Source: Acidobacteriota bacterium
GTDB taxonomy: Bacteria; Acidobacteriota; UBA890; WLXD01
Direction: 5' to 3'
DNA length: 64,000 nt
Assembly: GCA_965205505.1 (NCBI GenBank)
Contig: CBDBHB010000006.1
Span: forward strand, 128,001 to 192,000
The position numbers and the translations under genes are program-made. Below, piece after piece: positions 14,428 to 64,000 of the stretch. The stretch's first letter is position 1. The number at the start of each line of letters is the position of its first letter. A model generated the notes under the pieces. It had not been told where the DNA came from. It saw only the letters and a list, made by a program, of their open reading frames with translations, and did not search any database.

Positions 14428-15088
14428 ATGCGCTTCGAGCTCCAGGCCGGTCTGTGGATCAGACCTGTGCTGGTGCCGTTCGGCGCCGGGCGAGGAAGGC
14501 GATTCGCCGATCTTGAGGACCAATCGCTGCACGTGCGGTTGGGCTGGCTGTTCAACGACACGATCGATCTGGCAGCCGTCGATGCCGTCGAGCGCTCTCG
14601 GTGGTCCCTGTACCTGGGGTTGGGCTGCTGTCTCGGATTCCACTAGTGGCCTGTAACAGATGATCGTTGCATATCGTGGTGGCGAAATGGGTCCGGATGC
14701 CAGGCGCGACGACGAGAGGATGTTTGCCCATCTTGGAGGAGGAGCAACGCCGCAGACGGGCCGATTTCGCCGCCATCCTACGGACAGATGGGCAGTTGCG
14801 GGCGATATCGGCGTTGCGCCTCGTCGACGATGCCCACTGCATCGCCTTCCTCGCCGCGCCTTGATCTCACCCGCAAATCCCATCTGCGATATGCAACGAT
14901 CATCTGTTACAGGCCACTACGAGTATGGGGTGCTGGTGTCGACGAGAAACGTCGTGCGGCTGCACTTCAAGGAACGGCAGGCGATGCCGGTGATGGGTCG
15001 CTTCAAGTTCCAGGCTGAATGGCTCTACCTGGCGCTCGAGGAGCCCGACCAGTTCATCGAAGAGATCGGCCGGCGCGTTTCGTCGTGA
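14428..15088 (+). pseudogene. Hypothetical ~128-aa gene interrupted by a MITE
   Basis: Removing 14644-14917 restores one ORF (...LGFH-YEYGVLVS...RRVSS*). Confidence 0.8.
14644..14919. mobile_element. MITE family A (33-bp perfect TIR, TA duplication)
   Basis: TAGTGGCCTGTAACAGATGATCGTTGCATATCG (14644-14676) and its exact reverse complement (14887-14919). Confidence 0.9.
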
Positions 15089-61522: not shown

Positions 61523-61550
61523 CTAGCAGGCCTGCTAGCACCCCTGCTAG
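61523..61550. repeat. CTAGCAGGCCTGCTAG palindrome plus CCTGCTAG, probable collapsed MITE ends
   Basis: Three CTAG within 28 bp; GGCCTGCTAG recurs at 61949-61958. Confidence 0.5.
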
Positions 61551-61948
61551 ACGTCGAGAGTCCGCAGCGGCCGCACTTGCTGGATGCGCTCGAAGTCGGC
61601 ATCGTCGTGTAGCAGAATGCCATCGGCGTCGAGCACCTGCTGCGCGATGAAGCAGTCGACGGCCGAGCGGGGGGTGACGCCGGCCCTGCGGCAGTCGAAG
61701 TAGATCCGCGCCGCGTCGCGGTGCGTGTCCCATCCGCGACGCGCGGTGAGCGTGCGCTGGGTCGAAACGTAGAGGTCGAGCAGCTGCCACTCGGTTTCGT
61801 CGGACGCTCCCTGCAGCAACTCCTGACAGCAAACCTCAGGGATCCAGTATGGAGTGCCGCGGGACTCCATCTGTTGCATAGCGAGAACGGCGGGGCGTTG
61901 GTCATTCATAACGTAGGCGATCAACACTGATGTGTCGATGACGATCAC
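61547..61948 (-). CDS. vapC: PIN-domain VapC-like ribonuclease with no adjacent antitoxin
   Basis: IDTSVLI, ELLQG, DCFIA and LLHDDADF acidic PIN motifs. Confidence 0.9.
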   Translation of the reverse strand: MIVIDTSVLIAYVMNDQRPAVLAMQQMESRGTPYWIPEVCCQELLQGASDETEWQLLDLYVSTQRTLTARRGWDTHRDAARIYFDCRRAGVTPRSAVDCFIAQQVLDADGILLHDDADFERIQQVRPLRTLDV

Positions 61949-62055
61949 GGCCTGCTAGATGAGATGAGAAGGCCAACCTCCTGAACGCAGTAGCCTGACG
62001 GCTCTGCAAACGTTTCTTCAAACGTAACGGGCTCGAAGCCCAAGGAGGTTGGCCG

Positions 62056-63102
62056 ATGAGGAGTGTAACGATTGGACTGGACGTAAGCGACCGGTACAGC
62101 CGTATGTGCGTGCTCGACAGTAAGGGCAGGGTGATGGAGGAAGGGCGGGTGAGGACGAGCCCGGAGGGGCTGGCGAGGCGGTTCGGGTGCGAGGAGCCCG
62201 CTCGAGTAGTGCTGGAGGTTGGAACGCACTCGCCGTGGATGAGTGAGCAGTTGAAGCAACTGGGTCATGAGGTGCTGGTGGCTAACCCGAGGCGGCTGAA
62301 GCTGATCTATGGCGAGCACGACAAGACCGACCGGTTGGATGCCGAGCACCTGGCACGAGTGGGCAGAATGGACCCAAAGCTGCTTAAGACGGTGCAGCAT
62401 CGAGGCAGACAAGCGCGAGCGGATCTAGCCGTGATTCGGAGCCGAGATGCTCTGGTAAAGAGCTGCACGCAGTTGGTGAGCCATGTGCGTGGTGCGGTCA
62501 AGTCGGCCGGTTGTCGTATTCCCAGGTGCTCGACGCCGGCGTTCGCGCGCACCGCGCCAGAGCACATACCGGAGCGGCTCAAGGGAGCGCTCGAGCCGGT
62601 GCTTGAAACGATCGCCATGCTGACGGGCAACATCCAGCAATACGAGCGTCAGATCGTGCAGCTGTGCCAGGGGCGATACCCGGAGACACAGCAGCTCCAG
62701 CAAGTGGCCGGGGTCGGAGCTCTGACCGCACTGGCGTATGTGCTGACGCTCGAGGAGCCGGAGCGGTTCAATACCTCCAGAGCCGTGGGCCCGTACCTGG
62801 GACTGAGACCGAAGAAACGGCAGTCGGGGGACAAGGACCCTGCGCTACGAATAACCAAGGCGGGCGACAAAATGCTCCGACGCCTGTTGGTGGGCTCGGC
62901 GCATTACATCCTGGGCCCCTTCGGGCCCGATACTGAGCTCAGACGCTGGGGGCTCAAGCTGGCCGGACGCGGTGGTCCTCATGGCAACAAAAAGGCAGCA
63001 GTTGCTGTCGCCCGTAAGCTCGCCGTTGTGCTGCACCGACTGTGGCTGAGTGGAGACGAGTACGAACCGTTGCGCGCACCTGTAGAGGTTTCAGCAGCAT
63101 GA
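62056..63102 (+). CDS. IS110-family DEDD transposase/recombinase
   Basis: IGLDVS, VLEVG, KTDRLDA and YLGLRP..RQSG motifs; RBS GGAGG. Confidence 0.96.
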   Translation: MRSVTIGLDVSDRYSRMCVLDSKGRVMEEGRVRTSPEGLARRFGCEEPARVVLEVGTHSPWMSEQLKQLGHEVLVANPRRLKLIYGEHDKTDRLDAEHLARVGRMDPKLLKTVQHRGRQARADLAVIRSRDALVKSCTQLVSHVRGAVKSAGCRIPRCSTPAFARTAPEHIPERLKGALEPVLETIAMLTGNIQQYERQIVQLCQGRYPETQQLQQVAGVGALTALAYVLTLEEPERFNTSRAVGPYLGLRPKKRQSGDKDPALRITKAGDKMLRRLLVGSAHYILGPFGPDTELRRWGLKLAGRGGPHGNKKAAVAVARKLAVVLHRLWLSGDEYEPLRAPVEVSAA

Positions 63103-63149
63103 ACTAACCCGCAACCAGGAGGTCGGTAGGGCGACGCGACCCAACGGTT

Positions 63150-63312
63150 ATCGATCTGACCGCCCGGTCCGGGCGACTGCGAAGGTCACTACGAGCTTCG
63201 AGCTCGGCAGCTAGATTGCAGCGCCTCGAATCGGGACGGACCCCAGAATGCACCGGACGACCTGAATCCTCGTCCACCAGAGTGCGAATAGGAGCATGGC
63301 GTGCAGATCGAT
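63150..63312 (+). ncRNA. Predicted bridge/seekRNA
   Basis: Closing stem ATCGATCTG / CAGATCGAT; internal-loop hairpin at 63172-63225 with loops matching the target site. Confidence 0.7.
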
Positions 63313-63357
63313 TCTTCGCTGGCCACCACATTGCCCTTGACCGAACTAGGCCTTCTC

Positions 63358-64000
63358 TTAGAAGTGGCCTAACGCCTGGCGCAGCGCGGTGTCGATTCGC
63401 TCGTCGTCGCCTGCGAGCAACGTGCGCACGTCGAGGACGAGGCGATCGGCGACCACGCGGCCTACCAGGGCGGGCTCGGTGCCCAGCAAGCGGCGCACCA
63501 ACTGGTCGGGGGTTAGCGGCGTAGCAACGGCAATTCCCCACGATGGCAGCGTGGCGTCCGGGGCTGCTCCGCCGCCGACGCGCGATTCGAGCTGCAATAC
63601 CTCGGTGTTGACGCCGTCGATCGCGTCGACCAGCGCCGCCAGGGACTCGGCGCGCGCCTGTAACCGTGAGGGTTCCTGGCGAAGCATCGCCAAGGTCGGT
63701 ATGGCGTCGGATCGGCCCGCCAAGTAGTCGATCAGCGTTGCCTCGAGGGCCAGGAATGTCACCTTGTCGAGTCGTAGCGCCCGGTACAATGGGTTCGCGC
63801 GGGCACGCTCGACAGCTTCAGGCCGACCGGCAATGAGGCCCGCTTGCGGACCACCGAGCAGCTTGTCGCCTGAGAAAGTCACCAGATCGACGCCGGTGGC
63901 GAGGCGCTGACCGACGGTCGGATCGCCGACTCCGACCACCCCGAGGTCGACGAGGTTGCCGCTCCCGAGATCCTCCACCACCGGCACGCCAGTCTCGCGT
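63358..64000 (-). CDS. selA: L-seryl-tRNA(Sec) selenium transferase, 3' part
   Basis: EDLGSG, FSGDKLLGGPQAG, PLYRALRLDK, VGGG..P and LDVRT motifs. Confidence 0.95.
   Translation of the reverse strand, partial: RETGVPVVEDLGSGNLVDLGVVGVGDPTVGQRLATGVDLVTFSGDKLLGGPQAGLIAGRPEAVERARANPLYRALRLDKVTFLALEATLIDYLAGRSDAIPTLAMLRQEPSRLQARAESLAALVDAIDGVNTEVLQLESRVGGGAAPDATLPSWGIAVATPLTPDQLVRRLLGTEPALVGRVVADRLVLDVRTLLAGDDERIDTALRQALGHF

Follow-up and report, generated by a model that had tools for sequence, protein, structure and literature searches.

An insertion sequence (IS) of 1,406 bp lies near the right end of the 64,000-nucleotide stretch of DNA analysed here (the window; positions 128,001 to 192,000 of contig CBDBHB010000006.1 from an Acidobacteriota bacterium), on the plus strand between a vapC-like gene and the 3' part of selA. 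Its body occupies 61959-63362 and is completed by one AG, with AG duplicated at both sides, limits that are narrower than the 61949-63370 given in a preliminary description made from the sequence. The transposase gene is followed by a non-coding end holding a predicted RNA module of the bridge RNA or seekRNA kind, and comparison of the copies in this genome with each other and with related elements of the phylum indicates that this RNA would direct the element to its insertion sites.

Anatomy of the element and its insertion sites

The transposase matched PF01548 (E = 1.4e-17, 64.3 bits against a cut-off of 29) and PF02371 (E = 5.4e-17, 62.4 bits against 21.3), as expected for the IS110 superfamily, as well as NCBIfam NF033542, "IS110 family RNA-guided transposase", at 202.8 bits (cut-off 140). 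Siddiquee et al. 2024 (PMC11187229) describe the IS1111 group by subterminal inverted repeats of 7-17 bp with short extensions, a longer non-coding region downstream of the gene, a protein of 330-350 amino acids and the motif GL-P----S(T)G. The element has an 11-bp subterminal repeat pair (ATGAGAAGGCC / GGCCTTCTC(A/T)T) lying 5 nt (left) and 3 nt (right) in from the tips, 260 nt of non-coding DNA after the stop codon (63103-63362) against 97 nt before the start (61959-62055), and a 348-residue protein with GL-P----SG (..LGLRPKKRQSG..). Every feature of the group that could be tested is present and, by these measures, the element is an IS1111-type member of the IS110 superfamily. The domains, the repeats and the RNA module described below uphold the earlier assignment to this class, with RNA guides in the 3' non-coding end. 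Among solved structures, relatives of the transposase were found in ISCro4 (E = 7.6e-09) and IS621 (E = 9.6e-08) only, both weak and confined to the C-terminal half.

The element drew 33 BLAST matches in the window's own genome (9 contigs, 5.98 Mb), of which 28 are nearly full-length and several partial, corresponding to ~30 copies. The left junction reads CTAG in 28 of 29 copies and TTAG in the other, the sequence further left being variable, while the right junction reads AGTGGCCT in 30 of 31 and AGTGACCT in the remaining one. Beyond 63370 the copies differ again, though most run into one repeat, that of a miniature inverted-repeat transposable element (MITE). The right repeat ends in ..CAT in 22 of 28 copies, and the window copy has T at 63358 where those 22 have A. 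The same genome contains 109 unoccupied CTAGTGGCCT sites (CT-AG-TGGCCT) against 13.4 expected from base composition, 68 of which continue into the MITE repeat and 41 of which lie outside full MITE ends. This 8-fold excess, which exists despite a genome-wide depletion of CTAG (11,706 observed, 39,424 expected from base composition), is due to the MITE family.

These counts define the target as (N)CT-AG-TGGCCT, ~10 bp, of which only AG is duplicated. The preliminary description had arrived at a 14-bp target, GCTAGA-AGTGGCCT, with TAGA duplicated, an empty allele CTAGAAGTGGCCT (its empty site being written GGCCTGC-TAGA-AGTGGCCT), guides that tile the target without overlap and a silent insertion in selA. 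The inserted element does have TAGA at either end, and all six bases of GCTAGA agree with the left junction of the window copy (6/6). Against this, its empty-site string TAGAAGTGGCCT occurs 31 times and adjoins an IS right end in 30 of these, leaving a single occurrence away from the element compared with 109 unoccupied CT-AG-TGGCCT sites; because of these two counts the duplicated core is AG and not TAGA. Moreover, MITE ends without the IS read nnCT|AGTGGCCT, the base preceding TAGA differs between the two ends (C at the left, A or T at the right), and in all parsed relatives the left and right junctions have only AG (AA in one) in common. The TAGA version retains scarcely any chance of being right.

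The MITE family that supplies most targets is ~270-550 bp long with terminal inverted repeats of ~32 nt starting TGGCCTGTAACAGATGATCG and CTAG flanks at both ends, one example lying in the window at 14645-14918 (C6:142645-142918, C6 being the window's contig) and others at ~70 further places in the genome. Within 6 substitutions of the 32-nt terminal repeat, 147 MITE ends were found, 15 of them flagged as occupied by the IS; ends without it read nnCT|AGTGGCCTGTAACAG. Most often the element targets the CTAG flank of a MITE and the adjoining outer tip of its inverted repeat (TGGCCTGTAACAG..), and the selA stop codon, which the preliminary description had taken for the target, is one incidental site. 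A MITE subfamily starting TGTCCTGTAACAGAGGTTCG also exists. At the same CTAG, MITE ends and IS left junctions frequently border on a second short repeat with the ending ..CACTTCCACCACGGCCTGCTAG (window 61938-61958; C9:527422; C9:2498459), which may be another small mobile or palindromic element also sited at CTAG.

If AGTGGCCT were simply the right terminus of the IS, carried along in transposition, site choice would not be guided by RNA. This explanation agrees with the presence of AGTGGCCT after every copy and with three non-MITE sites, selA and two others (L012 and L015), at which close relatives lack TGGCCT at the homologous place; at L015 the left CTAG is ancestral, but comparison of L012 and L015 with relatives did not yield a true empty allele, because the DNA on the TGGCCT side is missing from the relatives. 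It is at odds with the MITE ends, where the motif is not duplicated and the IS sits exactly between the CT-AG and the TGGCCT of a repeat whose unoccupied copies start alike, with the 41 unoccupied CTAGTGGCCT sites outside full MITE ends, and with the related elements, in which the equivalent flank differs from element to element and matches each element's own guide. We therefore consider it very unlikely.

Not all copies retain an intact gene: the 348-residue frame is kept in only 11 of the 28 near-full copies (C6:512424 and C9:1734154 being examples of the 28), the same 4-bp deletion (window-equivalent 62321-62324) is present in 12 copies at different sites, and G62465 is missing in 5. The guide positions are invariant across the 28 copies, apart from 63291 in one copy. 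Copies with a broken frame and an intact RNA module seem to have spread, presumably by mobilisation in trans or by homogenisation through gene conversion.

Table 1 Features of the element and its surroundings in the window
Feature	Position	Strand	Basis or description
Left junction	61955-61958	+	CT 61955-61956, end of left target half; AG 61957-61958, left core copy
IS left end	61959-61974	+	Extension ATGAG 61959-61963, then left subterminal inverted repeat ATGAGAAGGCC 61964-61974
Perfect 11-bp inverted repeat GGCCAACCTCC / GGAGGTTGGCC	61971-61981 / 62044-62054	+	Read directly from sequence
Transposase/recombinase gene	62056-63102	+	348 amino acids; DEDD (RuvC-like) N-terminal domain and Transposase_20 C-terminal domain
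Bridge/seekRNA module, predicted	63151-63308	+	Extent of match to covariance model R1, 117.1 bits; sequence among the 15 rows from which R1 was built
Target-binding loop	63171-63226	+	Stem 5' strand 63171-63181, 3' strand 63217-63226; folds and pair counts
Right target guide AGGUCACUA	63183-63191	+	Directly 3' of the 5' stem strand
Capping hairpin	63192-63206	+	Variable among relatives
Left target guide GCUAG	63210-63214	+	Directly 5' of the 3' stem strand; equals (G)CT-AG
Donor-binding region, candidate	63241-63294	+	Right-donor-guide position, stem enclosing a hairpin, left donor guide
Right-donor-guide position CCCCAGAA, weak	63241-63248	+	Conserved position 5' of the second stem
Donor-region stem UGCAC / GUGCG	63249-63253 / 63282-63286	+	Conservation in alignment A1
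Left donor guide AUAGGAG	63288-63294	+	Family comparison; faces ATAGA-AG (right tip and core)
TTGACC, -35-like box	63337-63342	+	6 nt before the right inverted repeat
IS right end	63349-63364	+	Repeat GGCCTTCTCTT 63349-63359; extension AGA 63360-63362; right core AG 63363-63364
Right target half TGGCCT	63365-63370	+	Pairs, together with the core, with the right target guide
PIN-domain (vapC-like) gene	61547-61948	-	Pfam PIN, 1.8e-09; abuts the left junction
selA, 3' part	63358-64000	-	Pfam SelA, 6.3e-51; last codon TTC and stop TAA come from the IS right end

A predicted RNA module and its target guides

Relatives of the transposase were sought at E <= 1e-40 in 401 genomes sampled from the phylum and were present in 26 of them, this one included. 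None of the four genomes of the same genus has the IS, the best protein match lying above 1e-40 in all four, and the ~30 copies found here therefore point to a recent gain and burst. Parsed relatives share 43-57% protein identity and the layout [left flank]-AG-AT(G/A)(G/A)G-repeat ... repeat-(G/A)GA-AG-[right flank], with flanks that differ for each element; the left-end arrangement AG-ATGGG/ATGAG-ATGAGRAGGCC recurs among them, and two elements (L075 and L076) have AA instead of AG at both sides. From the window element and 14 relatives the non-coding module was aligned (alignment A1), leaving out L069 as well as L090 and L092, which are second copies of L064 and L074. One of the 15 rows, L067, comes from a genome marked as unpublished (G166), and nothing rests on that row alone.

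Two stems make up the consensus of A1, the conserved GGGCGACUGCG / UGCAGCGCC and UGCAC / GUGCG, together with a capping hairpin that varies. Standard pairs occupied 94.3% of the paired cells, compared to 27-46% when the partners were slid by 1-3 columns, and compensatory changes on both sides were seen in 10 of 19 pairs, with none of 500 shuffles reaching any of the five measures used. The G.U pairs of both stems fit the plus strand only. When folded singly, the 81 nt of 63160-63240 gave -42.2 kcal/mol (z = -3.27; 0/200 shuffles as stable). Single folds also show an outer helix that would close the module as a whole; its column-for-column alignment failed and it was excluded from the counted structure. 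The stem and the inner hairpin noted in the preliminary description are accordingly real features of the RNA sequence, confirmed by the fold and by the covariation analysis that it had called for, and both guide segments had been placed in the correct internal loop.

Within that loop, AGGTCACT (63183-63190) and the following A 63191 form 8 Watson-Crick pairs and one rU.dG wobble with the top strand TAGTGGCCT, T-AG-TGGCCT. The left guide repeats the CT-AG half. Both guides cover the AG core and overlap there, spanning ~10-11 bp, so that the contiguous 14-bp tiling proposed earlier does not hold. As for the individual matches, the complementarity of AGGTCACT with its wobble and the match of GCTAG stand, and the final A of the proposed GCTAGA (63215) instead matches the first base of the IS itself; this A is followed by U, and AGAU, kept in most relatives, corresponds to the core followed by the two bases with which the element's left end begins. 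A check of the flanks of the other copies, proposed in the preliminary description as one that could refute the guides, came out in their favour: AGTGGCCT is kept at 30 of 31 right junctions, and the one that departs from it, the AGTGACCT site, is a perfect match to the right guide.

The MITE family provides a natural control of this pairing. A sister subfamily reading CTAGTGTCCT, at which a guide U would face T, offers 87 sites and contains no IS, compared with 29 distinct occupied and 109 empty CTAGTGGCCT sites (29/109 versus 0/87; Fisher p = 2.2e-7). The guide rules would predict CTAGTGGCCT and CTAGTGACCT as usable targets and CTAGTGTCCT as unusable.

In the 15 elements, the right guide and its own target had a longest complementary run of 8.27 nt on average, compared to 4.55 (sd 1.34) for non-cognate targets, and contiguous matches of the left guide beyond the core averaged 4.27 for cognate against 0.73 for non-cognate targets; for neither guide did any of 20,000 permutations reach the observed value, the sum of runs in the case of the right guide, figures that overstate independence because the elements are kin. 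Of 13 related loci that had no part in building it, covariance model R1 (derived from A1) recognised the module in 11. The right junction could be parsed in 6 of these 11, and in 4 of the 6 the right guide was complementary to core plus flank over 8, 9, 8 and 10 nt; the left guide, checkable in two held-out loci, matched over 7 nt in each. Guide-to-target matching is therefore, at the level of sequence, a property that covaries across the relatives. The guides are short, and the left one has only 4-5 informative bases, which would leave room for the view that the complementarities arose by chance and that the transposase protein alone selects CTAGTGGCCT. The permutation tests over 15 elements with different targets and the held-out matches run counter to this view, as does the reprogramming of IS1111-family seekRNAs reported in PMC11187229, and we regard its probability as close to negligible.

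Predicted recognition of the element's own ends and the proposed mechanism

The preliminary description had been unable to identify a donor-binding loop. Its left-hand half is now apparent from the family comparison: the 7-nt segment just 3' of the second stem pairs with the element's own right tip and core in 17 of 17 usable rows, 15 of them entirely by Watson-Crick pairs and 2 with one wobble. This segment tracks the ends of each element, reading AUGGAAG with a GGA extension, AUAGAAG with AGA and AUAGAAA with an AA core, and the assignment of a left donor guide, AUAGGAG in the window copy, is well supported by this comparison. The right donor guide is partly and weakly supported. Its position has the consensus GGACCCCAnnA, in which CCCA pairs with TGGG of the left extension, and a reading of the A1 rows suggests that it covaries with the left tip in three relatives (CCUUA/TAAGG, CUCA/TGAG and UCCA/TGGA). 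A search of the window element for a perfect right donor guide found none. CUCGUC (63269-63274) was also considered for this role; it lies inside a hairpin stem and is regarded as a chance match.

The anatomy of the element, its core, the conservation of its target and the covariation of guides with target and donor and of the stems are read directly from the copies and relatives, and from these we infer a mechanism in which the RNA would be made and bound and the element would pass through a circular intermediate. Encoded 3' of the transposase gene on the same strand, the RNA would fold into a stem with an internal loop carrying the target guides, while the left donor guide would read the right tip and core and its weak 5' partner would face the left tip. 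The DEDD/Ser recombinase may then exchange strands at AG between a circular donor junction, ..CAT-AGA-AG-ATGAG-ATG.., and the target CT-AG-TGGCCT, an exchange that would leave AG on both sides. A putative junction promoter fits this scheme: all 15 elements (the window element and 14 relatives) have a TTGAC 8 nt upstream of the right repeat, and in a circularised element it would stand 17-18 nt ahead of a junction-spanning GAAGAT made up of extension, core and left end. A scan of 62950-63420 found no promoter or terminator in the linear sequence. At the other end, positions 61971-61981, which take in the inner part of the left subterminal repeat, have their perfect inverted partner at 62044-62054, the GGAGG ribosome-binding site region before the ATG; in RNA, pairing of the two arms would cover the ribosome-binding site of the transposase, a possible translational brake.

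Several observations weigh against a site choice made by the element's own RNA. The left guide constrains just CT and the core, the G preceding CT being present in only ~11 of 29 copies. The 3' non-coding end as a whole is not unusually stable compared to shuffled sequences (z = -1.29), and an Rfam scan of 61800-63500 at E up to 10 returned no family and three sub-threshold snoRNA-like chance matches (E 1.7-5.6). Two held-out loci depart from the pairing rule, L069 with 6 + 4 nt around a one-base bulge and L085 with a weak match. On the donor side, the right-guide position is not in step with the left tip in three relatives counting this element, where CCCCAGAA pairs poorly with AG-ATGAG, such that only 3 of 6 variant left tips are compensated. 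Finally, the RNA evidence consists of four metatranscriptome runs from one study, which contain the IS as assembled contigs only, showing neither RNA ends nor strand, and the circle junction is absent from these contigs. The contigs diverge into other flanks exactly after 63370, and in three runs their mean word depth was 16.5-18.5 over the 3' part compared to 4.3-6.9 over the 5' part, a difference from which we draw no conclusion, as contig depth cannot rank gene parts and DNA may be present. Taking these points together with the copy, covariation and guide-matching evidence, we assign a probability of about 0.9 to the reading that this is an active IS1111-family element choosing its insertion site by its own bridge/seekRNA.

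More tentatively, and with somewhat more doubt than belief, we suggest how this widespread subfamily of IS1111 elements may divide the work between RNA and protein. The donor "loop" would be a three-helix junction and not a second internal loop, with a 7-nt left donor guide and a right one reduced to 3-5 pairs, partly mismatched in this element, so that donor recognition would lean on the 11-bp repeats and the protein; target recognition would depend almost wholly on a single guide of 8-9 nt, tolerant of rU.dG and not of rU.dT, and copies with a frameshift would, as long as they keep the RNA, be mobilised in trans. If this were true, the genome would constitute a natural specificity experiment with 29 occupied, 109 empty and 87 single-mismatch sites.

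Genomic context, known systems and implications

The window copy joins a left flank from the vapC side to a right flank from the selA side. The DNA to its right, from selA onward, recurs in the opposite orientation where C6 begins (C6:1-13159 versus C6:189949-203100; 11.7 kb, 99.68% identity), and this repeat again abuts an IS right end, that of a second copy at C6:11743-13159, so that two inverted IS copies 176 kb apart bound the repeat. The simplest reading is that there were two original insertions, one at selA (the C6:11743-13159 site) and the other between vapB and vapC, at the tip of a MITE, and that the window junction was produced by inversion between inverted IS copies or by the assembler; that the window copy is such a recombinant or assembly join is probable, and this is compatible with RNA-guided site choice, to which it adds context only. 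Beyond the inverted repeat itself, it is favoured by the left flank of the second copy (..GGCTTCTAG), which is syntenic with DNA downstream of selA in two genomes of the same genus, by comparable distances to vapC (~178 kb from the second copy here, ~187 kb between selA and vapC in one relative), by vapB-like DNA, 81% identical to that of a same-genus genome, at the end of contig C1 (C1:30138-30406) beside a MITE end, and by a similar inverted overlap at the starts of C3 and C4 (C3:1-11667 versus C4:1-11657; 11.67 kb, 99.67%). Set against this, the window copy and the C6-start copy differ at 3 positions, and inversion polymorphism, inverted duplication and assembly artefact are alike possible. 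At least as assembled, the vapB/vapC pair is split by the MITE and IS insertion.

Because the flanks of the window copy stem from two insertions and not from one ancestral site, joining them does not rebuild that site. For selA proper, the corrected core predicts that an empty ..GGC CAC TAG most likely became ..GGC CAC TTC TAA on insertion, which would add one Phe (..GH* to ..GHF*), and the silent change of TAG to TAA put forward in the preliminary description no longer applies. An empty selA allele was sought in the four same-genus genomes, all of which lack the IS, but their C-terminal tails after ..RQAL and their downstream DNA diverge there, leaving the ancestral site unreadable.

Insertion into the repeats of other mobile elements has parallels, IS4321 and IS5075 reportedly inserting in the terminal repeats of the Tn21 family. 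That the targeting of another element's repeat is already known follows from IS1111 of Coxiella, of which 20 of 21 copies sit in QMITE2 according to PMC5896051; the present element is alike in using a target within such a repeat and differs in using the very tip of the MITE and its CTAG flank, in a different MITE family. ISPpu9 and ISPpu10 of Pseudomonas putida (PMC12288879; bioRxiv 10.64898/2026.03.19.712850) are reportedly likewise members of the IS110 superfamily that insert in repeated extragenic sequences and have an RNA gene (Ssr9) downstream of the transposase; host, target and RNA differ, and these elements are set side by side here by description only.

Likeness is also found to ISEc11, ISKpn4, ISPa11 and ISPst6, which according to Siddiquee et al. 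2024 (PMC11187229) share the long downstream non-coding region, the subterminal repeats, the 330-350-residue protein and GL-P----SG. The seekRNA elements of that work also carry the segment complementary to the top strand 5' of that complementary to the bottom strand, with matches that overlap in the target. From these four named elements the present one, known from sequence alone, differs in its target (CTAGTGGCCT) and its end sequences. With IS621, as presented by Durrant et al. 2024 (PMC11208160; PDB 8wt6), it has in common that target and donor would each be read on both strands, that a 2-bp core would take part in every guide pairing, AG on the transposase strand being CT opposite and CT the IS621 core, and that a junction promoter would be implied by a -35 box in the right end. 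It departs from IS621 so described in encoding its RNA 3' of the gene and not in the left end, in the opposite order of the guides within the target loop, in inverted repeats as long as 11 bp, and in a long target guide (8-9 nt) for the right half alongside a short one (4-5 nt) for the left, differences that accompany the weak protein similarity given above.

The element brings no new principle, as RNA-guided recombination by IS110/IS1111 elements was described in 2024 and NCBI already uses "RNA-guided transposase" for the protein family. Its value is that of a clean, internally controlled example, with ~30 insertions and both the 109 empty cognate and the 87 one-mismatch sites in a single genome. 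At least 25 related elements with different targets and one RNA architecture yield a usable covariance model, and with it the guide-to-target rules of this subfamily, in which the right guide is long, the left guide short and the core AG. For the host, the element is an agent of genome reshaping that rides on MITE tips, alters the ends of genes such as selA, with its probable extra codon, and stands at the boundaries of a large inverted repeat or inversion.

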